Positions 27,992 to 46,975 of a DNA stretch of 64,000 bases are shown here, piece by piece. The translations under genes and the position numbers were made by a program. Positions within the stretch are counted from its first letter, which is position 1. The number at the start of each line of letters is the position of its first letter. The notes below the pieces were generated by a model. The model saw only the letters and a program-made list of their open reading frames with translations, was not told where the DNA came from and did no database searches. Source of the DNA: Thermoanaerobaculia bacterium (GTDB taxonomy: Bacteria; Acidobacteriota; Thermoanaerobaculia; Thermoanaerobaculales; Sulfomarinibacteraceae); assembly GCA_027061805.1 (NCBI GenBank), contig JAMOWA010000008.1, positions 86 through 64,085 on the forward strand. The letters run 5' to 3'.

Positions 27992-28052
27992 ACCGGGTGG
28001 AACAAGCGGAGGGTTCCTCCGCCGTGTGGGAAACCAGCAAAGGAGGACGGAC

Positions 28053-31089: not shown

Positions 31090-32702
31090 TGGAGAACGCT
31101 CCGAGACCTGCGAGCCGGGAGGAGCTCAACCGTTTCCTGACCGAGCACGAGGGCGTGGACCCGAGGCGGCTGGTGCCGTTGCCCTTTCCCTACGAGGACT
31201 GGGAGGACGCTCCCATTCCCGAGCTGAGCGAGGACAAGCGGAGCCGCATCGAGGTGGGGCCGGACGGGGTCGCGGCGGCCCAGATCAAGGTGCCCGCGGA
31301 CGACGAGGAGAGGGACCGGCGGGTGGCGGCGTTCCTGGAGGGGCTGGCCAAGCTCTTCACGAAGGAGAACAACTGGACCTTCCTCCAGCCGCTCATGCTC
31401 TCCATGGAGAACTGCGTCAAGTGCCAGACCTGCGCCGAGGCCTGTCCCATCTACACGGGGTCCGGCAGGATGGAGGCCTATCGCCCCACCTTCAGGGCGG
31501 AGGTGCTCCGCAAGATCGTCAACCGGTACCTGAAGCCCGGCGGCCGGATCCTTCCCGGGCTCCGCGGCAACGACGTGGAGCTCAGCTGGGACGTGCTGGT
31601 CAGCCTGGCCGAGCTGTCCTACCGCTGCACCCTGTGCCGGCGCTGTGCCCAGACCTGTCCCGTGGGAGTGGACAACGCCCTCATCACGCGGGAGATCCGC
31701 AAGCTGTTCAGCCAGGAGCTCGGCATCGCCATGCCGGAGCTCCACGAGACCGGGACCATCAAGCAGCTCACCGTGGGTTCCTCCACCGGGCTCAACCCGG
31801 CGGGCCTGGCCGACATCATGGAGTTCGCCGAGGAGGACATCCAGGAGAAGACCGGCCTGGACATCACCATGCCCTTCGACGTGGAGGGTGCCGAGTACCT
31901 GGTGATGCACAATGCCGGCGAGTTCCTGTCCTGGCCCGAGAACCTCCAGGCCTTCGCCATCATCCTGGAGCTCGCGGGGGTGAGCTGGACCCTCTCCTCC
32001 GAGCTGGTGGGCTACGACTCGGTGAACTACGGCCTGTTCTACGACGACGTGCAGTACTCCCGCATCGCGCTGAAGCACTACGAGGTGGCCAGGAAGCTGG
32101 GGGTCAGGAAGATGATGGTGGGCGAGTGCGGCCACGCCCACAAGGCGCTGATGCCCATCGCCGACCGGCTGATTCCCGAGCAGCTCAGGGTCCGGACGGA
32201 GAGCTGCCTGGTGGTGCTCGAGGACATCGTGGTCAACGAGAAGATCCTGCTCGACCCCTCGCGGAACGACTTCCCGGTGACCCTCCACGATCCCTGCAAC
32301 ATCACCCGGTCCATGGGGATCGTCGAGCCCCAGAGGAAGATCCTCCGCAAGATCGCCCCGAGGTTCCGGGAGATGGAGCCGCACGGGGTCCACAACTACT
32401 GCTGCGGCGGGGGCTCGGGATTCGCCATCTGCCAGTCGATGAACTTCCCGGACTGGAGGACGAGGGTCTCGGGCCGCCTCAAGTTCCGCCAGATCCTCGA
32501 GGCGTTCTCGGACTGCATCGAGCCGGAGACGCCCAAGTACGTGTGCGCACCGTGCTCCAACTGCAAGGGGCAGATGCGGGATCTCCTCAACTACTACGAG
32601 GCCTGGGACCGCTGCGGGATCCTCTACGGCGGCCTGGTGGAGCTCATCGTCAACGCCATGGTGGACGTGCGCGAGGGCTTCGTGGAATGGGAGATGCACT
32701 GA
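31089..32702 (+). CDS. DsrK-like (HdrD-type) Fe-S/CCG-domain subunit, module 1
   Basis: CVKCQTCAEACP and CTLCRRCAQTCP ferredoxin motifs. CCG domain HNYCCGGGSG. About 95-aa N-terminal extension. Confidence 0.8.
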   Translation: MENAPRPASREELNRFLTEHEGVDPRRLVPLPFPYEDWEDAPIPELSEDKRSRIEVGPDGVAAAQIKVPADDEERDRRVAAFLEGLAKLFTKENNWTFLQPLMLSMENCVKCQTCAEACPIYTGSGRMEAYRPTFRAEVLRKIVNRYLKPGGRILPGLRGNDVELSWDVLVSLAELSYRCTLCRRCAQTCPVGVDNALITREIRKLFSQELGIAMPELHETGTIKQLTVGSSTGLNPAGLADIMEFAEEDIQEKTGLDITMPFDVEGAEYLVMHNAGEFLSWPENLQAFAIILELAGVSWTLSSELVGYDSVNYGLFYDDVQYSRIALKHYEVARKLGVRKMMVGECGHAHKALMPIADRLIPEQLRVRTESCLVVLEDIVVNEKILLDPSRNDFPVTLHDPCNITRSMGIVEPQRKILRKIAPRFREMEPHGVHNYCCGGGSGFAICQSMNFPDWRTRVSGRLKFRQILEAFSDCIEPETPKYVCAPCSNCKGQMRDLLNYYEAWDRCGILYGGLVELIVNAMVDVREGFVEWEMH

Positions 32703-32715: not shown

Positions 32716-33558
32716 ATGGGCCTGGCCGACCTGTTGAAGCGACGTCGTGGGGGGGAGCGCCCCACGAGCCGGCGGGCGCCGGAGAGGGTGCGGGGTGAGG
32801 AGGAGCTCGTCCGGATCGCCATGGAGGACCCCGAGCTGGAGCACCGCCTCCTCGCGGTGGACCGCCTGGGGAGCCAGGACGCCCTCGAGCGGGTGGCGCT
32901 CGACGGTTCCCACCTGGACGCGAGGCTCAAGGCGGTCCGCAGGATCACGGACCAGCGGGTGCTGGCCCGCATCATGCGGGAGCGGAAGCAGCCGGACCTG
33001 ATGATGGCGTGCTTCGAGGGAATCCGCGATCCCGCGGTGCTGGAGGAGGTGGCCAGGGACACCCGGCAGAGCCTCACCGCGCGGAGGATCGCCATCGACA
33101 TGTTCGCCGACCGGGACGCGCTCCTGGACATCCTCAGGTCGGTGAACGCTCCGGTGCTCAGGAGGGCGGCGGTGGAGAGGATCGGGGACCAGGACCTCCG
33201 GGCGCAGCTGGAGGCCGAGCTCGCGGCGCACCGGCCCGACGAGAACCTGGACAGGATCCTCGAGACCTACGACGCGGACGTGCTCGTGGAGTTCCTGGGG
33301 GCCTTCCGGGACTCGCCCTCCGCGGTCCGTGCGCTGGGACGGCTCGCCGGGCGTGGCGGGGAGGCCGGCGAGCACGCGGCGGTGATCCTCACCCGCCTCC
33401 TCAAGCACGCCCGTGCGGAGATCCGCAGGATCGCACTCGAGGGGCTCGCCGACACGGAGGCGTTCCCCGCGGACGTGGTGGAAGAGATGGCCGGGTCCGA
33501 TCCGGACCCCGAGGTGAGACGGCTCGCGCAGGCGGCCCTGGAGAAGGCCGACGCCTGA
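32716..33558 (+). CDS. HEAT-repeat protein
   Basis: 280 aa of repeated about 30-aa helical units (..RLLAVDRLG.., ..RRAAVERIGD.., ..RRIALEGLAD.., DPEVRRLAQAAL). Confidence 0.65.
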   Translation: MGLADLLKRRRGGERPTSRRAPERVRGEEELVRIAMEDPELEHRLLAVDRLGSQDALERVALDGSHLDARLKAVRRITDQRVLARIMRERKQPDLMMACFEGIRDPAVLEEVARDTRQSLTARRIAIDMFADRDALLDILRSVNAPVLRRAAVERIGDQDLRAQLEAELAAHRPDENLDRILETYDADVLVEFLGAFRDSPSAVRALGRLAGRGGEAGEHAAVILTRLLKHARAEIRRIALEGLADTEAFPADVVEEMAGSDPDPEVRRLAQAALEKADA

Positions 33559-33580: not shown

Positions 33581-33970
33581 ATGGGCGCCACGATTCTGGT
33601 TGTGGACGACGAGCAGGATGTCAGGACCTATCTGAGGACGCTCCTGACCAAACAGGGGTACGAGGTGGTCGCGGCCGCCGACGGGGAGGAGGGCCTGGAG
33701 GTGGCAAGAGCCCGGCGCCCGGACCTCGTCTTCCTGGACATCATGATGCCCAGGAAGACCGGGATCATGCTCTACCGGCGCCTGAAGAAGGACCCCGATC
33801 TCGGAGGGGTGCCCGTGGTGATCCTCACGGGGCTCTCCCAGTACCGGACCTTCTTCGCCCAGGACTTCGAGGAGGTTCCCCGGCCGGAGGCGTTCGTGGA
33901 GAAGCCGCCCAACCGGGAGGAGCTGCTCCGGCTGGTGGAGGAGCTGGTCTCCACCCCGGCCGGCGGCTGA
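33581..33970 (+). CDS. Stand-alone CheY-like receiver protein (no output domain)
   Basis: 129 aa. ILVVDDEQD ... LVFLDIMMP ... KP motifs. Confidence 0.85.
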   Translation: MGATILVVDDEQDVRTYLRTLLTKQGYEVVAAADGEEGLEVARARRPDLVFLDIMMPRKTGIMLYRRLKKDPDLGGVPVVILTGLSQYRTFFAQDFEEVPRPEAFVEKPPNREELLRLVEELVSTPAGG

Positions 33971-33991
33971 TCCGGCTCCGAGGGGGGAGGC

Positions 33992-35122
33992 ATGGACAGG
34001 GCCGGGGACGACGGGACCACCGTCCGGTGGAACGGACCCACGGGGGGTGAGCTGAGGGTCCAGGCCGACCGGCTCTTCGACCTGGTGCCGAGCGCCATCT
34101 CGATCCAGGACAGGAACTACAGGATCCGGAAGGTCAACGCCGCCTTCCGGCGGATGTTCGGCGAGGGCGTGGGCGAGTACTGCTACTCGGCCTACAAGGG
34201 GAGGTCCAGGGTGTGCCTGGACTGCCCCATGGCGCGCACCTTCGCCGACGGCGGCGTGCACTCCTCGGAGGAGGTGGTCCAGACCGCCGCCGGGGAGGTG
34301 CTCCACGTGACCGTCCAGACCTCGCCGATCCTGGGGCCGGACGGGAGCGTGGTGGGGGGGATGGAGGTGATGACCGACCTCTCGGGGTCCACGGCGGTGC
34401 GGCAGGAGCTGGTCCTCCTGGGTCAGGCCATGGCCGGCATGGCGCACTACATCAAGAACCTGCTCACCGGGCTCGAGGGCGGGGTCTACGTGGTGGAGGA
34501 GGCCCTCGAGGACGGTGACGAGGGGCTTCTCCAGGAGGGATGGGAGATGGTGCGCCGGAATGTGGAGCGCGTCGCCCGCCTTTCCAGGGACCAGCTGTAC
34601 TGTTCGCGCGACCGGATGCCGGAGATCCAGCTCGTGGAGGTGAACCGGCTGGTCTGCCAGTCCGCCGAGCTCTACCGGGCCCGGGCGGAGCGGGAGGGCA
34701 TCGGGCTCCACGTGGAGCTGGACGAACGGATCGGGGCGGGGTGGCTGGACCCGGAGGGCTTCGACAACCTTCTCACCAACCTGCTGTCCAACGCCCTGGA
34801 TGCCTGCCGCTTCGACACCTCGAAGGAGCGTCACTGGGTCTCGGTGAAGACCCTCCTCGAGAGTGGCGGCCAGCTCCACCTGGAGGTGGCGGACAACGGC
34901 CAGGGGATCCCCGAGAAGCTCTGCGGCGCCGTCTTCTCCGAGATGTTCACCACGAAGGGGGGCGGAGGGACCGGCCTGGGGCTCCTGGTGGTCTACAGGG
35001 TGGTCTGTGCCCACAATGGCCGGATCACCGTGATGTCCGAGGATGGCGTGGGGACGGTGTTCACCGTGATCCTCCCCCTGGCGCCCCCGGGCGAGCGGTC
35101 GATGAATGTTACCGTGGAGTAA
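33992..35122 (+). CDS. Cytoplasmic PAS-domain sensor histidine kinase
   Basis: N-terminal PAS-like region (IQDRNYRIRKVNAAF..). H-box GMAHYIKNLL. ATPase boxes NLLSNALDA, DNGQGIP and GTGLGLLVV. Confidence 0.8.
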   Translation: MDRAGDDGTTVRWNGPTGGELRVQADRLFDLVPSAISIQDRNYRIRKVNAAFRRMFGEGVGEYCYSAYKGRSRVCLDCPMARTFADGGVHSSEEVVQTAAGEVLHVTVQTSPILGPDGSVVGGMEVMTDLSGSTAVRQELVLLGQAMAGMAHYIKNLLTGLEGGVYVVEEALEDGDEGLLQEGWEMVRRNVERVARLSRDQLYCSRDRMPEIQLVEVNRLVCQSAELYRARAEREGIGLHVELDERIGAGWLDPEGFDNLLTNLLSNALDACRFDTSKERHWVSVKTLLESGGQLHLEVADNGQGIPEKLCGAVFSEMFTTKGGGGTGLGLLVVYRVVCAHNGRITVMSEDGVGTVFTVILPLAPPGERSMNVTVE

Positions 35123-35123: not shown

Positions 35124-35204
35124 GCTCGATCGTTGTATTGTCTGCGCAATCGATTGAAATTCAATGGTTTTCAGGGCTTGGGCGGGGTCCGTGATCCGTG
35201 GAGA

Positions 35205-35220
35205 TGGCACGGACATTGCT
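35205..35220 (+). promoter_or_regulatory. Candidate sigma54 promoter P4
   Basis: TGGCACGgacaTTGCT, an exact match to the TGGCACG-N4-TTGCW consensus, 44 bp upstream of ATG 35264. Confidence 0.75.
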
Positions 35221-35263
35221 GATTTCTTCACCGGCGGTCCCCTGTGGGACCGGGGGAGGGAGC

Positions 35264-36697
35264 ATGGAGGCGGAGATCCGTACCTTGCCGGAGGTTTCCC
35301 AGGATGTGCTGGCGTCTCTTCGGCCGCCGAGCCTGACACCGGAGAAGATCCAGGAGCGCCTCAGCTACATCATCGAGAAGGACCGCGTGGTGGGGGATCT
35401 GCCCCGGCGGTTCCTCGAGGCGTTCGCGGCGGTGCTCAAGCACACCAACTACCGCCAGGTGATCGACAACTATGCCAGGATACCGGCCCGCTGCGCCAAC
35501 TGCGCCTGTGCGTGCCAGATCTACCAGCAGACCCACGATCCGAAGGACGTGCCGTGCTACCGGTCGAACCTCCTCCTGGAGGTGTACCGGCGCCACTTCA
35601 CGCTCCGTGGGATCGTGGAGGGTCACCTGAGCGGGGCGCCGTTCCTGACGGACGACCTCATCCTGGAGATGGCCGAGACCTACTACCACTGTACGGCCTG
35701 CCGCCGGTGCACTCTCGAGTGCCCCCTGGGGATCGATCACGGCCTGGTCACCCACCTCGCCCGGTACGTGCTCTCGGAGATCGGGCTGGTTCCACGGGCC
35801 CTCGTGATCTCCACCAGGGAGCAGCTGGAGGGCCAGACCCGGAACACCTCGGCGATCCCGTGGCCGGCCATCGCCGACACCCTGGAGTTCCTGGAGGAGG
35901 AGATCAAGGACGACAAGGGTGTGGACGTGAAGTTCCCGGTGGACCAGCCGGGCCGGGAGTTCATCTTCTTCGCCCCCGTGTCCGACTACCTCATGGAGGC
36001 CGAGACGCTCATGGGGATCGCCGTGGTGTTCTACGCCACGGGGGCGATGGACTCCTGGACCATCTCCACCGAGTTCCTCGACGGCATCAACTACGGGCTC
36101 TTCTACAGCGACTGGATCCTGGAACGGTGCCTCAGGGAGGAGCTCGAGCAGCTCAGGAGACTCGAGGCCAGGAAGATCCTCATCGGGGAGTGCGGCCACG
36201 CCTCGCGGTCCGCCAAGGCGTTCATGCGGACCTTCGGCGGAGGGGAGAAGGCACCTCCGGTGGTGAACATCATGGAGTACACCTACCGGGCGCTCAAGGA
36301 GGGGAAGCTCAGGCTCGATCCCGACGTGATCAGCGAGCGGGTCACCTACCACGACCCCTGCAACCTGGCCCGGACGGGCTGGATCATCGACGAACCCCGG
36401 GAGATCCTGCGGTCCTTCTGCAGGGACTACGTGGAGATGGAGCCGCGGGGACAGTGGAACCTGTGCTGCGGCGGTGGTGGCGGGACCGTCTCGGTGGACG
36501 AGATCCGCCCCTACCGGACGGGGGTGACAGGCGTGAAGAAGGCGGAGCAGATCCGGGCCACGGGGGCCCACTACGTGGTGGCACCCTGTGCGAACTGCAA
36601 GAAGCAGCTCCGCGAGGTGTGCGAGGACAACGGCCTGGACGACGTGGAGGTGGTGGGCCTCCACGACCTCATCTACAAGGCCATCGTCCTGGAATGA
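35264..36697 (+). CDS. DsrK/HmcF-like (HdrD-type) Fe-S/CCG-domain subunit, module 2
   Basis: ATG 35264 (RBS GGGAGGGAG); the track ATG 35198 lies upstream of the predicted promoter elements (-24 element starts at 35205). CANCACACQ and CTACRRCTLECP motifs. CCG motif NLCCGGGGG. Confidence 0.8.
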   Translation: MEAEIRTLPEVSQDVLASLRPPSLTPEKIQERLSYIIEKDRVVGDLPRRFLEAFAAVLKHTNYRQVIDNYARIPARCANCACACQIYQQTHDPKDVPCYRSNLLLEVYRRHFTLRGIVEGHLSGAPFLTDDLILEMAETYYHCTACRRCTLECPLGIDHGLVTHLARYVLSEIGLVPRALVISTREQLEGQTRNTSAIPWPAIADTLEFLEEEIKDDKGVDVKFPVDQPGREFIFFAPVSDYLMEAETLMGIAVVFYATGAMDSWTISTEFLDGINYGLFYSDWILERCLREELEQLRRLEARKILIGECGHASRSAKAFMRTFGGGEKAPPVVNIMEYTYRALKEGKLRLDPDVISERVTYHDPCNLARTGWIIDEPREILRSFCRDYVEMEPRGQWNLCCGGGGGTVSVDEIRPYRTGVTGVKKAEQIRATGAHYVVAPCANCKKQLREVCEDNGLDDVEVVGLHDLIYKAIVLE

Positions 36698-36707
36698 GGA
36701 GGGCGTG

Positions 36708-37418
36708 ATGCTTGAGAGCTGGATCGAGCTGGCCCGCGGCCCCCTGCTGAGACTGGCCCTGCTGGCCATGGCGGTGGGACTGCTGCGTCAGGTGCTGCTC
36801 CAGGTCTGGGAGATCTCCTGGGCCTTCCACAGGGCGGGGGATCAGGTGGTGCCGTGGAGGGTGGCCCTCAGGAGAAACCTGGAGTGGCTGCTTCCCTGGC
36901 GCTATCTCCAGAGGAAGGAGCGGCGTGCCTACAACTTCACCTCCTTCCTGTTTCACGTCGGGGTGATCGCCGTTCCCCTGTTCCTGGCCGGGCACGTGGC
37001 CATCTGGAACCAGGAGCTGGGCCTGTCCTGGTGGACGCTGCCTCCCGCGGTGGCCGACTGGCTGACGGCGATCACCGTGGTGGCGGCGCTGGGGCTCCTG
37101 CTGGGGCGGATGGTGAACTCCGCCTCCAGGGTCATCAGCAAGTTCCAGGACTGGGCGCTTCCCGTGCTGTGCATCCTGCCGTTCGTGACGGGGTTCTGGG
37201 TGGCCCACCCCCTCTGGAGCCCCTTCGACGCGCAGGTGGTCTACCTGGTCCACCTGCTGTCCGCCGAGCTGCTCCTGATCCTGGTGCCGTTCTCCAAGCT
37301 CGTCCACATGGTCCTGTTCTGGGTGAGCCAGACCTCCAGCGAGCTCGGGTGGAGGTTCCCACCCGGCTCCGGTGAGCGGGTCAGGGTCACGCTCGGGAAG
37401 GAGACGGAGGGGATATGA
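36708..37418 (+). CDS. DsrM/HmcE-like (NarI-type) membrane heme-b subunit, module 2
   Basis: ATG 36708 (RBS GAGGAGGG). 236 aa, about 5 TM, with His in helices (FLFHVG, AGHVAIW, YLVHLL, KLVHMV). Confidence 0.7.
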   Translation: MLESWIELARGPLLRLALLAMAVGLLRQVLLQVWEISWAFHRAGDQVVPWRVALRRNLEWLLPWRYLQRKERRAYNFTSFLFHVGVIAVPLFLAGHVAIWNQELGLSWWTLPPAVADWLTAITVVAALGLLLGRMVNSASRVISKFQDWALPVLCILPFVTGFWVAHPLWSPFDAQVVYLVHLLSAELLLILVPFSKLVHMVLFWVSQTSSELGWRFPPGSGERVRVTLGKETEGI

Positions 37419-38245
37419 TCACGGATCCCTGCATCCTCAACGATGTCACCCGGTGTATCGGCTGCGAGGAGTGTGTGGCGGCGTGCAAGCGGATCAACGG
37501 ACTTCCGGAAGAGGACCCGCCGCCCAGGGTCGGCCAGTCGAAGGACGGCCTGTCCTCCACGAGGTGGACGAGCATCCTCCGGAGGACCGGGGGGGTCAAC
37601 GTTCGCAAGCAGTGCCGCCACTGCCTGGAGCCCGCCTGTGTCTCCGTGTGCCCCGTGGGCGCCCTGAAGAAGACGCCCGAGGGCCCGGTGGTCTACGACA
37701 AGAGCGTCTGCATGGGGTGCCGCTACTGCATGATGGGCTGCCCGTACGGCATCCCGCACTACGAGTGGAACACCGTCAATCCCTCCATCCGGAAGTGCAT
37801 CCTCTGCCACGAGAAGCTGAAGTCCGGGGAGATCGACCGTCCCGCGTGCGTGACGGCCTGCCCGAAGGAGGCCACGGTCTTCGGAAGCCGAGACGAGATG
37901 CTGGCCGAGGCCCGCCGCCGACTCGAGGCGGAGCCGGGCACGTACCTCCAGCACATCTGGGGGGAGCACGAGGTGGGCGGCACCTCGGTGCTGTACATCT
38001 CCCACGTGGACCTCGGTTTCCTGGCCTGGCAGGATCCGAAGTTCCTGGGGGTGGAACCCCTGCCCGAGCGGACGTGGAGCGCCCTGAAGAAGGTCCCCTT
38101 CGAGTTCGTGGGCATGGCCACCTTCATGACCGCGGCCTGGTGGATCATCGACCGCAGGATGCGGCTCCAGGGAGAGGAAGGTGCCGGTGGGGACCGTGAC
38201 CACGACGAGCCCGGCGGCTCCGCAGACGAGGGAGGCGAACAATGA
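37415..38245 (+). CDS. DsrO/HybA/FdnH-like 4x[4Fe-4S] ferredoxin subunit with C-terminal TM anchor and no N-terminal signal peptide
   Basis: The first cluster motif CIGCEECVAAC begins at residue 14. Further motifs CRHCLEPACVSVCP, CMGCRYCMMGCP and CILCHEK..ACVTACP. C-terminal helix FEFVGMATFMTAAWWII. ATGA overlaps on both sides. Confidence 0.8.
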   Translation: MITDPCILNDVTRCIGCEECVAACKRINGLPEEDPPPRVGQSKDGLSSTRWTSILRRTGGVNVRKQCRHCLEPACVSVCPVGALKKTPEGPVVYDKSVCMGCRYCMMGCPYGIPHYEWNTVNPSIRKCILCHEKLKSGEIDRPACVTACPKEATVFGSRDEMLAEARRRLEAEPGTYLQHIWGEHEVGGTSVLYISHVDLGFLAWQDPKFLGVEPLPERTWSALKKVPFEFVGMATFMTAAWWIIDRRMRLQGEEGAGGDRDHDEPGGSADEGGEQ

Positions 38246-40083
38246 CCCGGCGGGTCCAGATCACCAAGGGGATCCTGTGGTTCATCTCGGGGCTGGCGGC
38301 GGCCGTGACCATCGTCCGGTTCACCCGGGGCCTCGGTACCACCACCGCGCTCTCGGACACCACGCCGTGGGGACTCTGGGTCGGTTTCGACGTGATGGGC
38401 GGCGTGGCCCTGGCGGCGGGCGGATTCGTCATCGGCGCCATCGCCCACGTCTTTCAGAGGGAGCGCTACCACCACGCGGTGCGGCCGGCGATCCTCACCG
38501 CGCTGCTGGGCTATGCTGCGGTGGCGGTGGGGCTGATCTACGATCTCGGTCTCCCGTGGAACATCTGGCATCCGCTGATCTTCTGGAACCCCCACTCGCC
38601 GCTCTTCGAGGTGGCCTGGTGCGTGATGACCTACCTGGGGATCCTGTTCCTGGAGTTCCTGCCGGTGTTCCTGGAGAGGACCCGTTTCCAGGCGCTGTAC
38701 CGGACCCTGCTGCGCCTCCAGCTGCCGCTGATCATCCTGGGAATCTCGGTATCCACGCTCCACCAGTCGAGCCTGGGGACCCTCCTGCTCATCATGCCCT
38801 TCCGGCTGCACCCGCTCTGGTACACGCCCCACCTGCCGGAGCTGTTCTTCGTCTCCGCCATCTGCCTGGGGCTGGTGATGGTGATCTTCGAGTCCTCGGT
38901 GACGGCCTGGCTGTACGAGCGGGAGCCCCACACCGACATGCTCGCGGGGCTCTCCCGCTTTGCGGCGGGTGCCCTGGCCTTCTACCTGGCCTTCCGGTTC
39001 TTCGACCTGTGGCACCACGGCAAGCTGGGCCTGGCCTTCGAGAACACCTTCGAGGTGCGCCTCTTCTGGTTCGAGATCGCCATCAGCGCGGTGATCCCGC
39101 TGGTCCTGTTCCTGATTCCCCGCGTTCGCAGGAGCCACACGGGGGTGTTCATCGCGGCAGCCCTCGGCGTGATGGGCTTCCTGCTCAACCGCATCGACGC
39201 CTCGGGTCTGGCCCAGGTGTGGGCCACCGGCGCCGACTACTTCCCCGAGTGGACCGAGTTCGTGGTCAGCTTCGGGATCGTGTCGTTCTTCGCACTGATC
39301 TACCTCTTCATCCAGGAACACTTCCCGGTGGAGAAGGAGATCGTGGACGAGGAGGAGAGGTGGCTGCAACGCCAGCTCTTCGTGCTGCCCCGTTTCGACA
39401 GGGGCTCCCAGGTCTGGCTCGGTGATGCGACCTTCGCCTCCCGCAGGGTGTACTCGGCTCTCTTCGTGGTGGCGCTGGTGGTGGGGCTGGCGCTCACGCC
39501 GTGGCAGCCGCTCGTGAAGGCCTCGCCGGTGCAGCGGGCCCGGGGCGGCGAGATGCTCCGTGTGGGCTACCCCCTCGGCACCGTCATGTTCCCCCACGGG
39601 GAGCACATCACGCGGCTGGGGAAGGAGGCCTGCGGGACCTGCCACCACCTCCACAAGCCCGGCGACGTGGGGACCCCGTGCTCCGAGTGCCACGCGGACC
39701 TCTACCTGGACACCACGATCTTCGATCACGTGCGGCACGTGGCGGTCCTGGAGGGCAACGCCTCCTGTGCGAAGTGCCACCCGGAGGGGCAACCCAAGGT
39801 CCGTGCCACGGCCAGGAAGTGCTCCTCGTGCCACGAGAAGGACATGATGGCCGCCAACACCGTGGCGACCCGGTTCGAGAGCCTCGCGGCCCCGGGCCTG
39901 CGGCGGGCGGCCCACGGGATCTGCATCGAGTGCCACCGGAGGGAGGCGGCCAACCCCGAGTGGAAGAAGCCGGACCTCTTCCGCTGCGCCACCTGCCACA
40001 AGACCCCCGTGCCCCACGTGCAGGAGCTCCGGCTCCTCCGGGCGGAGGGCGGGGAGACCGCTCCGGTCGCAGCGGGTTCGTGA
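38242..40083 (+). CDS. Fusion: DsrP/HmcC-like NrfD-family membrane subunit (about 10 TM) + linker TM + C-terminal hexaheme cytochrome c domain
   Basis: 613 aa. NrfD/PsrC-like N-terminal 400 aa. Extra TM VYSALFVVALVVGLALTPW. Six CxxCH motifs: CGTCH, CSECH, CAKCH, CSSCH, CIECH and CATCH. Confidence 0.8.
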   Translation: MTRRVQITKGILWFISGLAAAVTIVRFTRGLGTTTALSDTTPWGLWVGFDVMGGVALAAGGFVIGAIAHVFQRERYHHAVRPAILTALLGYAAVAVGLIYDLGLPWNIWHPLIFWNPHSPLFEVAWCVMTYLGILFLEFLPVFLERTRFQALYRTLLRLQLPLIILGISVSTLHQSSLGTLLLIMPFRLHPLWYTPHLPELFFVSAICLGLVMVIFESSVTAWLYEREPHTDMLAGLSRFAAGALAFYLAFRFFDLWHHGKLGLAFENTFEVRLFWFEIAISAVIPLVLFLIPRVRRSHTGVFIAAALGVMGFLLNRIDASGLAQVWATGADYFPEWTEFVVSFGIVSFFALIYLFIQEHFPVEKEIVDEEERWLQRQLFVLPRFDRGSQVWLGDATFASRRVYSALFVVALVVGLALTPWQPLVKASPVQRARGGEMLRVGYPLGTVMFPHGEHITRLGKEACGTCHHLHKPGDVGTPCSECHADLYLDTTIFDHVRHVAVLEGNASCAKCHPEGQPKVRATARKCSSCHEKDMMAANTVATRFESLAAPGLRRAAHGICIECHRREAANPEWKKPDLFRCATCHKTPVPHVQELRLLRAEGGETAPVAAGS

Positions 40084-40165
40084 CACCTCCGGTGGCTGCC
40101 GTCCCCGGGTCCGCCGGGGACGGCTCCGCGGACCCGGGGACGGTGGGGAGCCGGCCACTCCGGGT

Positions 40166-40384: not shown

Positions 40385-40400
40385 TGGCACATGGGTTGCA
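40385..40400 (+). promoter_or_regulatory. Candidate sigma54 promoter P5 (YeiH-like/dsrABD unit)
   Basis: TGGCACatgggTTGCA, exact TGGCAC-N5-TTGC, 50 bp upstream of ATG 40450. The track ATG 40396 lies inside the promoter. Confidence 0.75.
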
Positions 40401-40449: not shown

Positions 40450-42096
40450 ATGGGCGAAGGAATCAAGCAACTGTGGAAGAAGGAAGACTGGTGGGCCGTG
40501 TGGCTCGGGCTCGGCATCGTCGTGATGGCGCTGTCCGTCTACCTGAGCGGCGGCACGATCAAGGGCTGGGCCGTGACGCCCGGGAAGTGGTCGAGCCTCT
40601 CGCAGCTCGGCGCCGACCTGGCGAAGCACGGCATGGGGTACCTGACGATCTTTCTGCTGTTCGGGATCGTCTTCACCGTCTCCATTGCCATCATGGGCCG
40701 GAAGGTCAAGGAGTACATCCCGGGCTACACGATGCTCTTCGTGGGCTCCCTGATCATCTTCTATCTGGCCTCCAACAAGTTTGTGAAGGGGACGCTTCAT
40801 CTGGGTGCCCCGCTGCTCGCCCTGATCATCGGGCTCATCATCGGAAACATCAAGAAGATGCCGGAGTGGTTCCAGACGAGCCTGCGGACCGAGTACTACA
40901 TCAAGACCGGAATCGTGCTGCTGGGCGCCACCCTGCCCCTGACGCTGATCTTCTCGGCGGGACCGGTGGCCTTCATCCAGGCGACGATCGTCTCGGTCTG
41001 CACCTGGCTGACGATCTTCCTGGCCGCCACCAAGATCTTCAAGCTCGAGCCGCAGTTCGGGGCGGTCCTGGGTGCCGGCGGGGCGGTCTGCGGCGTCTCG
41101 GCCTCCATCGCAGTGGGCGGTGCGGTCAAGGCCCACAAGGACCACATCGCCATCGGCATCGCCATCGTCTCGGTGTGGGCGATCGTCATGATCCTGATCC
41201 TGAGCGTGGTGGTGAAGTTCATGGTGCCCGCAGCCATCTCTCCCGGTGAGGCGGGGGCCTGGGTGGGGACCTCGGAGTTCGCCGACGCGGCGGGGTTCGC
41301 CGTGGTGGCAGAGCTGGCCGACGTGATCGAGTCCGGTGCGCTCACCGGCCCCGGTGGCGCCCCCCTCAACCCGGACGATCCCATCAACACCTTCACCCTC
41401 ATGAAGGTGATCGGTCGGGACATCTGGATCGGCATCTGGTGCCTGATCCTGGCCATCGTCTCGGTGGTCTTCTGGGAGAAGAAGGACGCGTCACAGAGGG
41501 CAGTGGGAGCCGGGATCATCTGGGAGCGGTTTCCCAAGTTCGTGCTGGGGTTCTTCGCCGCGTCCATCATCATGACCGCCGTCACCGCCAACCCGCCCGG
41601 GGACTGGGTGGGGAAGGCCAAGCTGAAGGGGACCTTCAAGTCCAAGGCCGAGAAGATCGTCTACGCGGCCGACTTCTCCAACTACGTGGTGCCGCAGGAG
41701 CTCGCGGACAAGTTCGCCATCGAGGGTGACACCATCACCTTCAAGGGCAAGATGAGCATCCACGAGTTCGAGATCCTCAAGGCGGCGATCCCGCAGGACG
41801 ATCCGAACCGCAAGGACAAGATCGGCGCGCTCAAGCAGCTGCGGCATTCTTCGGACTGGTTCTTCTCCGATCTGAAGCCGAAGCTGATCAACCCGATCAA
41901 GAAACTCAGGTCGTGGGCCTTCGTCCTGTGCTTCCTCTGCATCGGGCTGTCCACGCGCTTCGCCGACCTGCTGACCTTCGGCCTGAAGCCGTTCTGGGCG
42001 TTCACCATCGGTGTGCTGGTCAATGTGCCCCTCGGGTACTTCCTGTCCACCGTGGTGTTCTCGAAGTTCTGGTCGAACATTTCGAGCCTCATGTGA
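40450..42096 (+). CDS. YeiH/UPF0324 (putative sulfate-exporter, PSE) family transporter with large hydrophilic insertions
   Basis: ATG 40450 after AGGAGG. 548 aa. Multi-TM core typical of YeiH ([15 protein letters not shown]). About 110-aa soluble insert ([19 protein letters not shown]...KLRSWAF) before the last TM helices. Confidence 0.65.
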
Positions 42097-42151
42097 GGCA
42101 CGGGGGGAAAACAGGACCTGCGGGTCTGGGGAGACAAGGAAAGGAGTTGCC

Positions 42152-43345
42152 ATGAGTGAGAAGAATCGAGCAACACCGCTGCTTGACGAGCTCGAGAAGG
42201 GGCCGTGGCCGAGCTTCGTCAAGGAGATCAAGAAGGAGTCCGAACGGCCCATGGTCAGGGACCTGCTCGGGTTGCTGGAGCGGTCCTACGAGGAGCACAT
42301 CGGACACTGGAAGCACGGCGGCCTCGTGGGCGTCATGGGGTACGGCGGCGGTGTCATCGGGCGGTACTCCGACCTGCCCGAGGAGTTCCCGGAGATCGCG
42401 GAGTTCCACACCTACCGCGTGAACCAGCCCTCCGCCTGGTTCTACACCTCCGACGCACTCAGGACCCTGTGCGACATCTGGGACAGGCACGGGTCGGGCC
42501 TGACGAACATGCACGGGTCCACGGGTGACATCATCTTCCTCGGGTCCAAGACCGAGGCGCTCGAGCCCTGCTTCGCCGACCTGACCGAGGCGGGCTTCGA
42601 CCTGGGCGGCTCGGGTTCCGACGTGCGGACGCCGAGCTGCTGCGTGGGACCCGCCCGGTGCGAGTGGGCCTGCTACGACACGCTGGAGGCCTGCTACGAC
42701 ATCACGCAGACCTACCAGGACGAGCTGCACCGGCCGGCCTTCCCCTACAAGTACAAGTTCAAGTTCGCCGGGTGCCCCAACGACTGCGTGGCCTCCATTG
42801 CACGGTCGGACATGTCGGTGATCGGCACATGGAAGGACAACATCCAGATCGACCAGGAGCAGGTCCGCGAGTATGCGGCGGGCGGCACGGACATCGAGGC
42901 CGAGATCTGCGAGATGTGCCCCACCGGCTGCATCACCTGGAACGGCGAGCAGCTGGTCATCGACAACTCGGAGTGCGTCAAGTGCATGCACTGCATCAAC
43001 GTGATGCCCAGGGCGCTCAAGCCGGGCAAGGAACGCGGCGCGACGATCCTCATCGGCGCCAAGGCGCCCATCATCGGAGGGGCGCTGCTGTCCTCCGTCT
43101 TCGTTCCGTTCCTCGAGATGGAGCCCCCGTACGAGGACCTCAAGGAGCTGGCCGAGGCCATCTGGGACTTCTGGGGCGAGTACGGCAAGAACCGCGAGCG
43201 CGTGGGCGAGTTCATCCAGCGCGTCGGTCTGGGCAACTTCCTGGAGGAGATCGGCCTGGATCCCGTTCCCGAGATGGTGGCCCATCCCAGGACGAACCCG
43301 TACATCTTCTTCGACGAAGAGCTCGAAGAGGACGAGGACGAGTAG
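42152..43345 (+). CDS. dsrA: Dissimilatory sulfite reductase alpha subunit
   Basis: N-terminus [20 protein letters not shown]. Siroheme/cluster Cys [12 protein letters not shown]. Ferredoxin insert [14 protein letters not shown] and CPTGC..CVKCMHC. Confidence 0.95.
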
Positions 43346-43354: not shown

Positions 43355-44431
43355 ATGGCTGTGGCAACCAGAAAGACGGACATCGGACCGCCGAATTACA
43401 AGCAGTTCCTTCCGCCCATCATCCAGAAGAACTACGGCAAGTGGGCGTACCACGAGATCCCCGAGCCGGGCGTCATGGTGCACGTGGCCGAGTCGGGCGA
43501 CAAGCTCTACACGGTCCGGGCGGGCACGCCTCGCCTGCTGGCCATCACCACCATCCGGGCGTTCGCGGACCTGGCGGACAGGTACTGTGACGGGTACATC
43601 CGCTGGACCAGCCGGCACAACGTGGAGTTCCTCCTGACCGATCCCTCGAAGATTCCGGCGCTCAAGAAGGACCTGGAGGAGCTGGGATTCCCGGTGGGCG
43701 GTACGGGCAACGCCATCTCCTCCATCGTCCACACCCAGGGGTGGGTCCACTGCCACTCCGCGGCCACGGACGCCTCCGGGGTGGTGAAGAGCCTCATGGA
43801 CGAGCTCTTCCCTCACTTCGTCAACATGGACCTGCCCGCCAAGCTCCGGGTGGCCTTTGCCTGCTGCCTGAACATGTGCGGCGCGGTGCACTGCTCCGAC
43901 ATCGCGGTCCTGGGCGTCCACACCAGGGCACCCACCATCGACCACGACGAGCTGCCCAAGGTCTGCGAGGTGCCGACCCTGGTCTCCTCCTGCCCCACCG
44001 GCGCCATCCGGCCGGCCACCGTGGACGGCAACGCCTCGGTGGAGATCGAGGAGGAGCAGTGCATGTACTGCGGCAACTGCTACACTGTCTGCCCCTCGGT
44101 GAAGATCAACAACGCCGAGACCGACGGCATCTCCATCTGGGTGGGCGGCAAGGTCTCCAACGCCCGCTCGGAGCCCAAGTTCTCCAAGCTCGCCATCCCG
44201 TACCTCCCCAACAATCCGCCGCGCTGGCCGGAGGTTGTGGAGGCGGTGGTCAACATCGTCAACGTCTACGCCCAGAACGCCCGGAAGCACGAGCGCCTGG
44301 GAGAGTGGATCGACCGCATCGGCTGGCCGCGCTTCTTCGAGCTCACCGGCATTCCGTTCACCAAGTACCACATCGACGACTTCAAGCACGCCGGCGAGAC
44401 CTACAAGCGGTCCGTCCAGCTGAAGCACTAG
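43355..44431 (+). CDS. dsrB: Dissimilatory sulfite reductase beta subunit
   Basis: [43 protein letters not shown], and ferredoxin domain [18 protein letters not shown]. Confidence 0.95.
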
Positions 44432-44440: not shown

Positions 44441-44689
44441 ATGAGTCAACCCACCGTGGAAGAGGTCGCCGACGCCATGTATGACCTGGTGAAGGCCACC
44501 CATGGCAAGAAGAACCTCAAGGCCATGGACCTCACCAAGGCCATGATCGAGAAGTTCGGCGACGACGCCGTGGACAAGAAACTGTGCAAGCTCGCGATCC
44601 GCCAGCTCATCGACTCGGGCCGGTGCATCTACAGCTACTTCGGTGGGTCGTTCATCACCCTGCCACCGGACGAGGATTCCGGGGGCTGA
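44441..44689 (+). CDS. dsrD: DsrD (small winged-helix protein of reductive-type dsr operons)
   Basis: 82 aa directly after dsrB. Lys-rich N-terminal part and a C-terminal ..LIDSGRCIYSYFGGSFITL segment comparable to the DsrD ..LEYWSSGSTTMYGL region. Call rests on size, position and pattern. Confidence 0.7.
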   Translation: MSQPTVEEVADAMYDLVKATHGKKNLKAMDLTKAMIEKFGDDAVDKKLCKLAIRQLIDSGRCIYSYFGGSFITLPPDEDSGG

Positions 44690-44698
44690 TGTCGAACC

Positions 44699-44733
44699 GT
44701 ACGGGGGCCGGGGTGCCCGGCCCCCGTACTTTT
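44699..44733 (+). terminator. Very strong hairpin + T-tract after dsrD (terminator/attenuator or mRNA-stabilising element)
   Basis: 14-bp perfect GC-rich stem gtacgggggccggg/cccggcccccgtac, 3-nt loop, then TTTTCC. Only 18 nt before the next ATG. Confidence 0.7.
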
Positions 44734-44751
44734 CCTACCAGGAGGCACAGC

Positions 44752-45195
44752 ATGGCCAAGGACAAGATGAGCGGTCCGGAACGCGTGGAACATACGATCC
44801 AGGTGCTTCGCGACTGGCAGAAGCTGGAGCGGGAAGCCATCGAGAACACCGCCGAGATCATGGAGAAGACCGGCAACCCGCTGATCCGGCAGTTCATGGA
44901 GATCATCCGCAACGACTCGGTGCAGCACCACCGGGTGCAGCAGTTCATCATCGACAGTCTCACCACCACGCCGGTGAAGCTGACGCCCGACGATCTCGCC
45001 GAGGTCTGGGACGCCATCGCGGCCCATGACGAGGTGGAGCGCAGGACCATCGAGATCGCCAAGGAGCTCAAGGAGGAGTGCCGCTTCTTCGTGCAGAAGG
45101 CCCTCCTGGAGTACCTGATCATCGACGAGGAGAAGCACGACCACCTCCTCGGCATGCTCGAGGAGTTCAAGAAGAAACTGTATCCCTACGGCTGA
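44752..45195 (+). CDS. Ferritin-like/rubrerythrin-like four-helix protein of unknown function
   Basis: 147 aa, all-helical. AGGAGG RBS. Paired acidic/His segments (EAIENTAE, VQHH, DEVE, EEKHDH). Family assignment is tentative. Confidence 0.5.
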   Translation: MAKDKMSGPERVEHTIQVLRDWQKLEREAIENTAEIMEKTGNPLIRQFMEIIRNDSVQHHRVQQFIIDSLTTTPVKLTPDDLAEVWDAIAAHDEVERRTIEIAKELKEECRFFVQKALLEYLIIDEEKHDHLLGMLEEFKKKLYPYG

Positions 45196-45232: not shown

Positions 45233-46975
45233 ATGGGTCTGTTGAAGAAGAAGGACACGAAGAAATCCAAGAGCCGCATGGCCCGGCTGGCGGGCGGCGG
45301 GGGTGGTTCGGGATCCGAGATCTCGCCGCTGAGGCCACAGTACGTGGAGAAGCTGCCCCCCTGCGTGGGGCACTGCCCCTCGGGGAACGACATCCGTGGC
45401 TGGCTGACCATCGTCGCCCAGCGTGACAAGCTCGGGCTCTCCATGGAGGAGGCCTGGGACCGCGCCTGGAGGATCGAGGTGGAGACCAACCCGTTCCCCG
45501 CCGTGATGGGGCGGGTGTGTCCCCATCCCTGCGAGGGCGAGTGCAACCGCAAGGTCAAGGACGGCGCGGTGGCCATCAACTCGGTGGAGCGCCTTGTGGG
45601 GGACTGGGGCCTCGAGCGGGGCCTCGCGCTTCCCACGCTGGACGTGGGAGGGCCCTTCGCCGAGAAGATCGCCGTGATCGGCGCCGGCCCCTCGGGGCTC
45701 TCGGTGGCGTACCAGCTGGCCCGCCGCGGCTACGGCGTGACCGTCTTCGAGGCCCTGCCCCATCCCGGCGGCATGCTCCGGTACGGGATCCCGGTCTACC
45801 GGCTGCCCCGGGAGGTCCTGGACGCCGAGATCCAGAAGATCCTCGACCTCGGCGTGGAGCTCCGCTGCGGTGTCAGGGTGGGTGAGGACATTCCCCTGGA
45901 CGAGCTGCGCAAGGAGTTCTCGGCCATCTACCTGGGCATCGGCGCCCACCAGGGCCGGAAGATGGGCATCCCGGGCGAGGACGGCGAGGGCGTCTACACC
46001 GGGACCGAGTTCCTCAGGCGGGCCAACGCCGGGGAACCTGTGACCGCGGGTGAGCGGGTGGTCATCATCGGTGGCGGCGACACGGCCGTGGATGCCGCCC
46101 GCGTCTCCAAGCGCCTCACCGCCGACTCGGCGGCCGTCTCGAAGCGGGCGGGCGCCCAGGTGACGATCCTGTACCGCCGGACCCGGGCCGAGATGCCGGC
46201 CATCGAACGCGAGATCGAGGAAGCCCTGGAGGAGGGAATTGAGATCGAGTTCCTTGCGGCACCCATCAAGATCGAGCGGGACGCCGACGGGAAGGTGACG
46301 AAGATGATCGTCCAGCGGATGGAGCTCGGGGAACCCGACGAGTCGGGCCGCCGGCGCCCGGTTCCCGTGGAGGGCGACACCTTCGAGCTGGAATGCGACA
46401 CGGTGATCATGGCCGTCAGCCAGCAGCCCGAGCTGGCACCGCTGGCCAGGGCCCTCGGCGTGGAGGGTTCCTGGCTGGACTCCGACGAGTGGGGCCGCAC
46501 CGGCATCGACGGCATCTGGGCCGGTGGCGATGCCCTGGGCCTGGGCCTGGCCACCATCTCCATCGGCCAGGGCCGCAAGGCGGCCGAGTCCATCCACGCC
46601 ACGCTCCGCGGGGAGGAGCTGCCCGAGGGCGACACGCGGCCGCCCATCGGGCCCGACGGCCTCAAGATCGACTGGTACCCGCCCCTCGAGCGGAACGAGA
46701 GGACCGTGCTCTCCCCCGAGGAGAGGCTGGCCCGGCCGCTCGACGAGATCGATCTGGGGATCACCAGGGAGCAGGGCCTGGACGAGGTGATGCGCTGCTT
46801 CTCCTGCGGCCTGTGCTTCAACTGCGAGAACTGCTGGATGTACTGCCAGAACTCGTGCTTCAAGAAGGTGCCCGATCCCAGCCCCGGCAACTACTACACC
46901 ATCAGCCTCGGCACCTGTGACGGGTGCAAGAAGTGCTGGGAGGAGTGCCCCTGCGGGTACCTCGAGGGGCACTAG
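45233..46975 (+). CDS. dsrL: DsrL (GltD-like NAD(P)H:acceptor oxidoreductase with C-terminal ferredoxin domain)
   Basis: CVGHCP..VCPHPCEGEC. Two Rossmann motifs, VIGAGPSG and VVIIGGGDTAVDAA. C-terminal CFSCGLCFNCENC and CDGCKKCWEECP. Confidence 0.85.
   Translation: MGLLKKKDTKKSKSRMARLAGGGGGSGSEISPLRPQYVEKLPPCVGHCPSGNDIRGWLTIVAQRDKLGLSMEEAWDRAWRIEVETNPFPAVMGRVCPHPCEGECNRKVKDGAVAINSVERLVGDWGLERGLALPTLDVGGPFAEKIAVIGAGPSGLSVAYQLARRGYGVTVFEALPHPGGMLRYGIPVYRLPREVLDAEIQKILDLGVELRCGVRVGEDIPLDELRKEFSAIYLGIGAHQGRKMGIPGEDGEGVYTGTEFLRRANAGEPVTAGERVVIIGGGDTAVDAARVSKRLTADSAAVSKRAGAQVTILYRRTRAEMPAIEREIEEALEEGIEIEFLAAPIKIERDADGKVTKMIVQRMELGEPDESGRRRPVPVEGDTFELECDTVIMAVSQQPELAPLARALGVEGSWLDSDEWGRTGIDGIWAGGDALGLGLATISIGQGRKAAESIHATLRGEELPEGDTRPPIGPDGLKIDWYPPLERNERTVLSPEERLARPLDEIDLGITREQGLDEVMRCFSCGLCFNCENCWMYCQNSCFKKVPDPSPGNYYTISLGTCDGCKKCWEECPCGYLEGH

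Follow-up and report, generated by a model that had tools for sequence, protein, structure and literature searches.

Within a stretch of 64,000 nucleotides (nt) from contig JAMOWA010000008.1 of a Thermoanaerobaculia bacterium (the window), we analyzed the gene at 38242-40083, in which an NrfD-type membrane subunit and a multihaem cytochrome c are encoded as a single polypeptide, together with the three genes directly upstream of it. The four genes, referred to below as F-like, E-like, B-like and C::cyt (the fusion), and the segments of the fusion protein are located as follows.

35264..36697, plus strand: F-like, a DsrK/HmcF/TmcB-like cytoplasmic iron-sulfur (Fe-S) protein with one CCG domain (Pfam CCG and Fer4_8; G+C content at third codon positions, GC3)
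36708..37418, plus strand: E-like, an HmcE/TmcC-like membrane cytochrome b of the NarI family (Pfam Nitrate_red_gam; several transmembrane (TM) helices with conserved His)
37415..38245, plus strand: B-like, an HmcB/HybA-like 4x[4Fe-4S] protein with a C-terminal tail helix and no signal peptide (NCBIfam HmcB)
38242-40083, plus strand: C::cyt, the fusion protein, last gene of the operon
38242..39324, plus strand, residues 1-361 of the fusion: NrfD/HmcC-type ten-helix quinone-interacting core (Pfam, NCBIfam, AlphaFold2 model, Foldseek)
39325..39426, plus strand, residues 362-395: charged cytoplasmic linker with a short helix (365-377) and the motif LPxF....VWLG (alignment, AlphaFold2)
39427..39495, plus strand, residues 396-418: eleventh TM helix, which takes the chain to the periplasm (hydropathy, AlphaFold2), the equivalent of the N-terminal anchor of a stand-alone cytochrome
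39559..40017, plus strand, residues 440-592: periplasmic, HmcA-like hexahaem class III cytochrome c domain (six CxxCH motifs, Pfam, profile search)

Translation of 38242-40083 yields one uninterrupted frame of 613 residues, without internal stops and with six CxxCH motifs at residues 464, 480, 509, 527, 561 and 582 (apoprotein of about 67 kDa). The preliminary description of this locus, which had read it as one polypeptide joining an NrfD-family subunit of the HmcC/DsrP/PsrC type to a hexahaem cytochrome, was correct in both respects. The Pfam NrfD model matches residues 37-318 with 61 bits (gathering score 25.8), which together with the ten helices places the protein in the ten-helix type of the NrfD/PsrC family (PF03916), and the Cytochrom_CIII model matches with 46 bits (cut-off 22.9), which places the haem domain among the class III multihaem cytochromes c (PF02085; c3/Hmc family). 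The G+C content of the window is 68.7%, resulting in long spurious open reading frames (ORFs) in every frame, and GC3 was used to pick the coding frames. In the fusion gene, GC3 is between 0.88 and 1.0 in every 40-codon block, including the blocks from codon 361 to 440 that span the junction, and the codon-position G+C pattern is that of genuine genes in the window. In the junction region, both of the remaining forward frames contain stops.

An alignment of 38 fusion homologues (47-87% identity) showed that all 18 Cys and His residues of the six CxxCH motifs are invariant; at the level of sequence comparison, this invariance is a sign of selection and not of chance. Candidate distal His residues are also present in the required number: H452, H469, H496, H499 and H558 are invariant, and H455 is conserved in at least 90% of the sequences. 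Together with the six CxxCH motifs, these six residues would supply the ligands for six bis-histidine (bis-His) haems. In the linker, P383 is invariant and W392 and G394 are conserved in at least 90% of the homologues. Because the LPxF....VWLG motif is conserved, the alignment suggests that this segment makes a structural contact rather than serving as a passive linker.

The fusion is widespread. A search of about 5.8 billion proteins retrieved more than 100 clusters (at 90% identity) of proteins with 600-640 residues that combine NrfD with a Cytochrom_CIII or C7 domain and are 46-98% identical to the query. Where the source databases name them, the names are "Ni/Fe-hydrogenase cytochrome b subunit", "HybB-like" or "NrfD/PsrC family molybdoenzyme membrane anchor subunit". 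The named homologues in this search are from Acidobacteriota or Vicinamibacterales, and the closest named relatives are metagenome-assembled genomes (MAGs) of Acidobacteriota/Vicinamibacterales. At the genome level, at least 80 species, all uncultured, carry the fusion; the corresponding set of at least 80 loci, with one genome per GTDB species, is the basis for all counts out of 80 given below. These loci are labelled as belonging to about ten phyla, that is, Acidobacteriota (Vicinamibacterales, Bryobacterales, Holophagae), Zixibacteria, Ignavibacteria/Kapabacteria/Melioribacteraceae/Bacteroidota, Kryptoniota, Planctomycetota, Gemmatimonadota, Latescibacterota, Thermodesulfobacteriota, Chloroflexia and others. 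With few exceptions, the match extends from residue 1-9 to about residue 587 or beyond and includes all six haem sites, and two of the 80 loci end at a contig end before the haem domain. The fusion architecture, which the preliminary description had set apart from the described complexes and had proposed to look for in databases, is therefore real, but it is common rather than rare. A frameshift or missed stop that merged two genes, or an untranslated CxxCH region, is virtually excluded as an explanation, since the continuous frame, the GC3 of at least 0.88 with stops in the other two forward frames, the invariant haem motifs, and the recurrence of the same length and architecture in so many independent clusters and loci far outweigh the few database homologues that are split or have out-of-frame tails (P0099 and P0121 on one contig; P0077), which are probably frameshifted copies.

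With the haem domain alone as the query, HMMER was run exhaustively against 1.84 billion representatives and matched 250 of these at E <= 1e-10, and among the 150 of them that were listed, at the 50%-identity level, at least 64 have NrfD sequence upstream of the haem domain, 19 of these being full length and 45 being cut by contig ends. A word-indexed search with the haem domain returned only ten short proteins, none of them full-length; it took the exhaustive search of the representatives to reveal the family. A subgroup of proteins of about 290 residues (P0233, P0246, P0263, P0269, P0271, P0244) has the hexahaem domain behind a different N-terminus with apparently two hydrophobic helices, which may represent another anchoring of the hexahaem module. 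The closest genomic relative, locus L067 on a 3 kb contig (JAGLDW010000497.1), shows 79-89% protein identity over F-like, E-like, B-like and the NrfD part of the fusion. The MAG is labelled Lentisphaeria, and all other close relatives are Acidobacteriota; probably, this contig was mis-binned.

A naturally split form of the gene exists and was read in three loci, L081-L083, from three Joint Genome Institute (JGI) samples. There, an NrfD gene (4868-5995, 375 residues) is followed after 6 nt by a cytochrome gene (6001-6738, 245 residues) that has an AAGGAGG ribosome-binding site of its own and encodes a cytoplasmic N-terminal stretch, one TM helix and a domain with six CxxCH motifs. The F-like, E-like and B-like genes lie upstream also in this form, and the B-like subunit is likewise devoid of a signal. 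The verified split cytochrome, P0129, occurs on 16 contigs, and its motif in front of the TM helix is degenerate (HFDPVTNVW). Two close cytochrome-only proteins, P0126 and P0127, of unproven split or truncated status, carry the full LPxF....VWLG motif. The existence of the split form indicates that the gene in the window corresponds to an NrfD gene joined to an adjacent gene for an anchored hexahaem cytochrome, and that helix 11 corresponds to the former anchor. Accordingly, the fusion would have arisen by joining the NrfD gene to the neighboring gene for a membrane-anchored cytochrome, whereby the N-terminal anchor of the latter would have become helix 11, connecting the cytoplasmic end of helix 10 with the periplasm, where six bis-His haems c would be attached.

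The topology of the fusion protein was assessed by hydropathy, by an AlphaFold2 model built on 38 homologues, and by charge distribution. Hydropathy revealed 11 TM segments. The model contains ten confident membrane helices (3-28, 43-70, 74-101, 120-144, 150-183, 198-224, 231-258, 270-291, 299-329 and 337-360), a cytoplasmic helix at 365-377 and TM helix 11 at 396-418. Among the PDB folds retrieved by Foldseek, ActC and ActF, two subunits of alternative complex III, match best (E = 1e-8 to 1e-5, template modelling score of 0.6 on the target). The ten-helix subclass of NrfD proteins consists of two four-helix bundles and two flanking helices, and in its members (ActC, ActF, HybB, DsrP, QrcD, NhcC) both termini are on the cytoplasmic (N) side (PMC8076601). 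Therefore, an eleventh helix is needed to export a C-terminal domain. On average, the predicted cytoplasmic loops contain 11.7 Lys and Arg residues and the periplasmic loops 3.6, and this bias was found in 38 of the 38 homologues, which puts the N-terminus inside and the haem domain outside. The helix count of ten plus one and the N-in orientation with a periplasmic haem domain, as given in the preliminary description, agree with these results, and covalent haem attachment in the periplasm is predicted from the modelled topology. On the outer side, there are long, conserved and nearly uncharged loops (PWGLW..GFDV, GLPWNIWHP..FWNPHSPLFE, STLHQSSLG). Solved NrfD relatives have their quinone pocket and their Fe-S partner on this outer side, and a putative quinone/quinol site of the NrfD core would lie near the periplasmic face. 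The N-terminus of the fusion, MTRRVQITKG, was considered as a twin-arginine signal that might carry the Fe-S subunit along, and was rejected: the Arg-Arg is not conserved as a pair in the homologue alignment, many homologues having a single Arg (SRVQRLK, NSRVF), and the NrfD protein of the split form starts with MKKLHTLK.

Clustering of all ORFs across the 80 loci, several of which are cut by contig ends, showed that only four co-oriented genes are near-universal: the fusion, the B-like gene (78 of 80), the E-like gene (75 of 80) and the F-like gene (66 of 80). In the window, stop and start codons overlap at the E-like/B-like junction (ATGA) and at the B-like/fusion junction, which fits translational coupling. 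The start of the F-like gene was set at 35264 based on a sigma-54 site and on a ribosome-binding site (GGGAGG before ATG). An ORF at 35164-36708 was rejected as the first gene of the operon, as it is in the wrong frame and without family match, and GC3 picks 35198-36697. The clustering did not reveal a conserved small extra gene (HmcD) in the operon, and unbiased neighbor clustering across the same loci, which yielded only the four genes, regulators and a Nitro_FeMo-Co protein, did not reveal a molybdopterin-like ActB1/QrcB subunit. In one planctomycete locus, L027, the E-like, B-like and fusion genes are present and the contig ends before the F-like position. In 23 loci, mostly of Zixibacteria and Ignavibacteria, a Nitro_FeMo-Co (NifX/NifB-like) protein is encoded directly upstream of the F-like gene (in L008 at 6277-7044, 254 residues); it is absent from the window.

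The subunits were compared with NCBIfam models of the known complexes. The NrfD core scored 292 bits against HmcC (cut-off 550), 280 against HybB (below the cut-off) and 109 against QrcD (cut-off 570), and the fusion protein had no match to the existing DsrP model at E < 0.01. B-like scored 244 against HmcB (cut-off 420) and 103 against DsrO (cut-off 200). E-like scored 143 against TmcC and 141 against HmcE (cut-off 275), both below the cut-offs, and 17 against DsrM (cut-off 300). F-like scored 278 against DsrK (cut-off 400), 200 against HmcF (cut-off 750) and 194 against TmcB. The fusion matched the HmcA model with 27 bits (cut-off 400), and a profile of the haem domain retrieved the 16-haem HmcA first among the PDB sequences (1z1n, E = 2.5e-25; 2e84, E = 3e-20). 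The entries 2e84, 1gws and 1h29 were at E = 1e-17 to 1e-20, followed by cytochromes c3, the nine-haem NhcA, NrfB and, weakly, ActA. A separate 16-haem HmcA, an HmcD and an N-terminal export signal on the HmcB-type subunit, as expected for an Hmc orthologue, were not found in the operon. The low scores, the lack of HmcD, six haems versus 16, and the different gene order thus speak against orthology to the described Hmc; judged by these comparisons, the operon is a distinct relative of the Hmc complex. Likewise, the score of 109 against QrcD and the absence of ActB1/QrcB from the operon separate it from alternative complex III and Qrc.

It could also be assumed that the operon is the DsrMKJOP of this lineage, with DsrJ fused to DsrP and the genes reordered. 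It lies beside dsrAB, dsrC and dsrN, the window lacks canonical dsrJOP genes, F-like scores best against DsrK, and the subunit types correspond one-to-one to K, M, O, P and J. However, there is no DsrP match, B-like and E-like score far higher against HmcB and HmcE than against DsrO and DsrM, a trihaem DsrJ is missing from the operon, and the haem domain, with six haems of the bis-His type, is similar to HmcA. Decisive evidence came from two loci, L021 (Acidobacteria, 1697-6801) and L032 (Bryobacterales, 88-4787), in which a complete canonical dsrMKJOP is located directly upstream of F-E-B-C::cyt, with all subunits above the cut-offs (bits in L021/L032: DsrM 504/387, DsrK 730/722, DsrJ 126/137, DsrO 295/287, DsrP 425/473). 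The operon therefore encodes a paralogous complex, and DsrMKJOP orthology, highly improbable also from the scores, was rejected.

Based on homology with DsrMKJOP and Hmc, we consider it fairly likely that the fusion serves as the membrane component of a compact transmembrane redox complex of the Hmc type, encoded by four co-transcribed genes, with an electron path to F-like and DsrC; the assembly of the subunits, the path, the substrate and the direction are proposed here by analogy. For DsrMKJOP, a preprint on the structure by cryo-electron microscopy (cryo-EM) reports menadiol in DsrP near the periplasmic face and less than 8 Å from a DsrO cluster, and DsrJ in contact with the periplasmic face of DsrM. 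Its authors propose a flow from DsrP via DsrO, DsrJ and DsrM to DsrK, which reduces the DsrC-trisulfide, so that the cytochrome c is an internal bridge from the Fe-S subunit to the haem-b subunit (10.64898/2026.08.25.746951). In the complex proposed here, menaquinol/menaquinone would react at the periplasm-side pocket of the NrfD core, and electrons would pass through the four Fe-S clusters of B-like to the tethered six-haem chain, and from there across the membrane via the haems of the HmcE-like dihaem cytochrome b, E-like, to the non-cubane cluster of F-like. With its single CCG/non-cubane site, F-like would act as the reductase for a trisulfide or disulfide of a cytoplasmic protein, DsrC being the most likely one. 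Electrons may also leave the tethered haems to soluble periplasmic partners, and the overall direction could be reversed. Six haems would make a longer wire than three and may reach such soluble partners, which would match both the periplasmic input of the preliminary description and the role usually given to HmcA, and the fusion would fix a 1:1 stoichiometry and keep the haem chain at the membrane surface. The preliminary description had proposed that the fusion hard-wires periplasmic electron input to the membrane subunit. This is only one possibility, and an internal bridge as in the DsrMKJOP preprint may hold instead.

Several observations weigh against the proposed complex. None of the four products reaches the NCBIfam equivalog cut-off for any Hmc, Tmc or Dsr subunit, so that the function is assigned by analogy only. 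The haem domain is modelled with low confidence (predicted local distance difference test, pLDDT, of 40-75), and the model does not yield a haem-to-quinone-site geometry. The dsr genes of the window, and those (dsrAB, dsrC, dsrL, dsrN or dsrMK) found at a distance of up to 10 kb in about 20 of the 80 loci, speak for the proposed complex; many loci, for example those of planctomycetes, are devoid of dsr genes over this distance, and the link to DsrC may thus not be general. In six planctomycete loci whose contigs extend far enough upstream (L060, L062, L063, L068, L072 and L076), the F-like gene was not detected upstream; the E-B-fusion set of the planctomycetes may be a truncated version of the complex. 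Finally, an N-terminal signal of the twin-arginine translocation (Tat) or general secretion (Sec) type is absent from about 65 of the about 76 B-like ORFs examined, that is, those with a clean upstream boundary, and from the split variant, and clustering of all ORFs in the 80 loci did not uncover a conserved Tat-tagged partner nearby. With neither a signal nor a Tat-tagged partner, the periplasmic location of B-like, which the model needs, is unexplained.

The export of B-like is the main weakness of the model and, at the same time, its most interesting lead, since it poses a concrete and testable question. In the window, B-like starts MITDPCILNDVTRCIGC, its ATGA overlapping the upstream stop. 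The start, MITDPCILNDVTRCIGCEEC, is five residues before the first cluster motif, and the protein aligns to the HmcB model only from position 38. At the other end, the homologues share a C-tail helix (VPFAFVGMG..M.GLNWII) with a basic stretch (RRRMKL-like) behind it, the mean number of Lys and Arg residues being 3.9 after the helix versus 1.3 before it (n = 78). By the positive-inside rule, the tail with its basic stretch would lie on the cytoplasmic side, and the Fe-S domain on the opposite, outer side. HmcB, HybA and DsrO are exported via Tat, the first two being anchored through a tail helix at the C-terminus (PMC10924467).

If B-like nevertheless stayed in the cytoplasm, its Fe-S clusters would be on the cytoplasmic face together with the DsrK-like protein, and the haems would be periplasmic, a topology that is undescribed for NrfD modules. 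The missing signal peptides, also in the split variant, and the missing Tat-tagged neighbor are in line with this arrangement. However, the C-tail with its basic stretch implies an outer Fe-S domain as in HybA and HmcB (PMC10924467), the conserved NrfD loops, which in solved homologues contact the Fe-S partner, face the side on which the haem domain lies, and there is precedent for C-tail Fe-S proteins without a signal that are exported together with a Tat-tagged partner: for one such protein, paired with a HybB-like protein, the adjacent Tat-tagged [FeFe] hydrogenase is the proposed carrier. A cytoplasmic B-like subunit thus appears quite unlikely. We tentatively raise the possibility that the operon points either to an undescribed targeting route for a folded four-cluster Fe-S protein, with an unlinked hitchhiking partner or depending on the C-tail, or to an unprecedented split topology, and that in either case it would represent a separate and widely distributed branch of the Hmc/Dsr/Tmc group, so far without a name, in non-classical sulfite or sulfate reducers; this combined proposal is offered with little confidence.

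A further alternative is that the complex operates only on the periplasmic side, as a quinol:cytochrome c (or cytochrome c:quinone) oxidoreductase in the manner of Qrc, alternative complex III or Geobacter Cbc, with periplasmic or extracellular acceptors and without a direct role in the reduction of DsrC. The combination of NrfD, an Fe-S protein and a TM-tethered multihaem cytochrome is indeed the architecture of alternative complex III and Qrc, ActC has the nearest fold, and the haem profile distantly matches ActA. In addition, dsr genes are absent from the surrounding 10 kb in the majority of the 80 loci, and the six planctomycete loci lack the F-like gene. On the other hand, in 66-75 of the 80 loci the DsrK-like and HmcE-like genes share one orientation and are closely linked, their stop and start codons overlapping, which argues for a transmembrane link to a cytoplasmic thiol/disulfide site. 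The ActB1/QrcB subunit is absent, and the dsr linkage recurs in several phyla. We therefore regard a purely periplasmic function as unlikely, and prefer the transmembrane complex that connects the quinone pool with F-like and DsrC.

The window contains the following regulatory features.

35205..35220, plus strand: exact sigma-54 -24/-12 promoter consensus, TGGCACGGACATTGCT, intergenic, 44 nt upstream of the F-like start codon
40099..40143, plus strand: perfect 16-nt GC-rich inverted repeat without a T tract, 16 nt after the stop codon of the fusion
40385-40400, plus strand: second exact sigma-54 consensus, intergenic, preceding yeiH-dsrAB
62508-63959: gene for a PAS-sigma-54 activator

Exact matches to TGGCAC-N5-TTGCW occur twice in the 64 kb, versus 0.05 expected, and none of 100 shuffled sequences reached two. 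Sites with one mismatch precede the dsrMK paralogues (30121-30136) and the gene at 18975 (18624-18639). A PAS-sigma-54 activator is encoded beside the operon in 29 of the 80 loci. Because of the exact sites and of the activators in the window and in these 29 related loci, the data suggest sigma-54-dependent control of both the Hmc-like and the yeiH-dsrAB operon, and the whole dsr island may be RpoN-dependent. A scan for a sigma-70 promoter and an intrinsic terminator after the fusion gene found neither. The inverted repeat at 40099-40143 probably marks the transcript end or, alternatively, forms an mRNA-stabilising hairpin.

The neighboring genes in the window are the following.

18975-26065: HdrA/GltD-like flavoprotein whose C-terminal part is of the CCG type, followed by NuoG-, NuoE- and NuoF-like genes
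26075-27903: response regulator and histidine kinase
27954-29033: rhodanese
30190-32702: DsrM/DsrK paralogues (DsrK 344 bits, cut-off 400; no match to the DsrM model)
32716-33558: HEAT-repeat protein
33581-33970, plus strand: single-domain response regulator of the DVU0259/DivK type
33992-35122, plus strand: PAS histidine kinase
~40450-42096: YeiH-family membrane protein
42149-43345: dsrA, well above the equivalog cut-off
43355-44431: dsrB, well above the equivalog cut-off
45233-46975: DsrL-like NAD(P)-binding Fe-S flavoprotein, between dsrB and dsrN
46997-48400: DsrN-like amidase
49491-49808: DsrC ending in ...C-x10-CV, with both redox cysteines

The response regulator and the PAS histidine kinase at 33581..35122 adjoin the operon in the window and in most relatives, and a set of response regulator, PAS histidine kinase and response regulator flanks the operon in more than 40 of the 80 loci. 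The DsrM/DsrK pair at 30190-32702 resembles the paralogues termed "dsrM2K2" that were reported to precede dsrAB in Acidobacteria from peatland (PMC6018796), and a DsrL-like gene in the position found here has been reported for Acidobacteriota (PMC6018796, PMC7596348). The HdrA/GltD-like protein scored 527 bits against the "diclust_near_Sec" model (cut-off 530), and the cluster at 18975-26065 may encode a soluble module through which electrons from NAD(P)H enter the dsr system. Between dsrB and the dsrL-like gene, there is an ORF at 44584-45195 (probable start MAKDKMSGPER, about 147 residues) without a Pfam or NCBIfam match; it sits where dsrD is often found and is too long for a typical DsrD.

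We found neither the NrfD-cytochrome c fusion nor the four-gene operon described in the reviews and phylogenies of NrfD proteins (PMC8076601, PMC6303296), in a survey of Tat-dependent tail-anchored proteins (PMC10924467), in the papers on acidobacterial and Kapabacteria dsr genes (PMC6018796, PMC10564751, PMC8528874, PMC6338057), in those on the evolution and diversity of dsr (PMC10504309, PMC10591310), or in the searchable full-text literature, which lacks most subscription journals. The building blocks are all from known families, and a prior description in the subscription literature is possible. Thiel et al. listed "dsrM-2, dsrK-2" and a dsrP "located elsewhere" (PMC6338057), which may be genes of this operon that were annotated piecemeal.

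Acidobacteriota, Zixibacteria, Ignavibacteria/Kapabacteria and Gemmatimonadota have only recently been recognized as dsr carriers (PMC6018796, PMC10591310), and their energy conservation has been inferred from Desulfovibrio models. The operon adds to this picture a conserved, probable respiratory complex, Hmc-like and unnamed, that is often linked to dsr genes and occurs in about ten phyla according to the labels. The fusion provides direct genetic evidence that an NrfD subunit and a multihaem cytochrome act as one unit with a fixed stoichiometry, and a system of four polypeptides would be a simplified subject for studying the structure and mechanism of Hmc/Dsr-type transmembrane electron transfer.

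Of the systems known to date, alternative complex III (ActABCDEF) and QrcABCD share with the operon the ten-helix NrfD protein, the adjacent Fe-S subunit and a penta- or hexahaem cytochrome on a single TM helix. In these complexes, the cytochrome is a separate polypeptide, and the ActB1/QrcB-type subunit carries the Tat signal for the Fe-S module. The operon, in contrast, has neither ActB1/QrcB nor a second NrfD protein, and instead contains the DsrK-like and HmcE-like genes. In CbcL of Geobacter sulfurreducens, a membrane domain that interacts with the quinone pool and a periplasmic multihaem c domain also form one polypeptide; there, however, the membrane domain is a dihaem cytochrome b of the HydC/FdnI type and not a cofactor-less NrfD, and the gene is not known to be part of an Hmc- or Dsr-type operon.

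DsrMKJOP resembles the operon in the logic of its modules and probably in the electron path; DsrJ is membrane-anchored as well, and the operon is linked to dsrAB and dsrC. In contrast to DsrMKJOP, the operon is a paralogue with an HmcA-like hexahaem domain in place of the trihaem DsrJ. HmcABCDEF of Desulfovibrio/Nitratidesulfovibrio vulgaris combines modules of the same types as the operon: a multihaem cytochrome of class III, a 4x[4Fe-4S] protein anchored by its C-tail, a ten-helix NrfD/HybB-like protein, a NarI-like cytochrome b and a cytoplasmic CCG protein (PMC10924467). HmcC, HmcB and HmcE are the best or joint-best NCBIfam matches, and HmcA is the best PDB match of the haem profile. As the preliminary description had pointed out, the cytochromes of the described complexes are separate proteins, HmcA and DsrJ being subunits distinct from the membrane subunit (PMC6303296, PMC10924467). 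In the operon, by contrast, the cytochrome, with six haems in place of the 16 of HmcA, is joined via an extra helix to the C-terminus of the NrfD protein, the gene order is F-E-B-C(A) instead of A-B-C-D-E-F without an HmcD in the operon, the Fe-S subunit is devoid of the N-terminal signal region, and the CCG subunit scores higher against DsrK than against HmcF.

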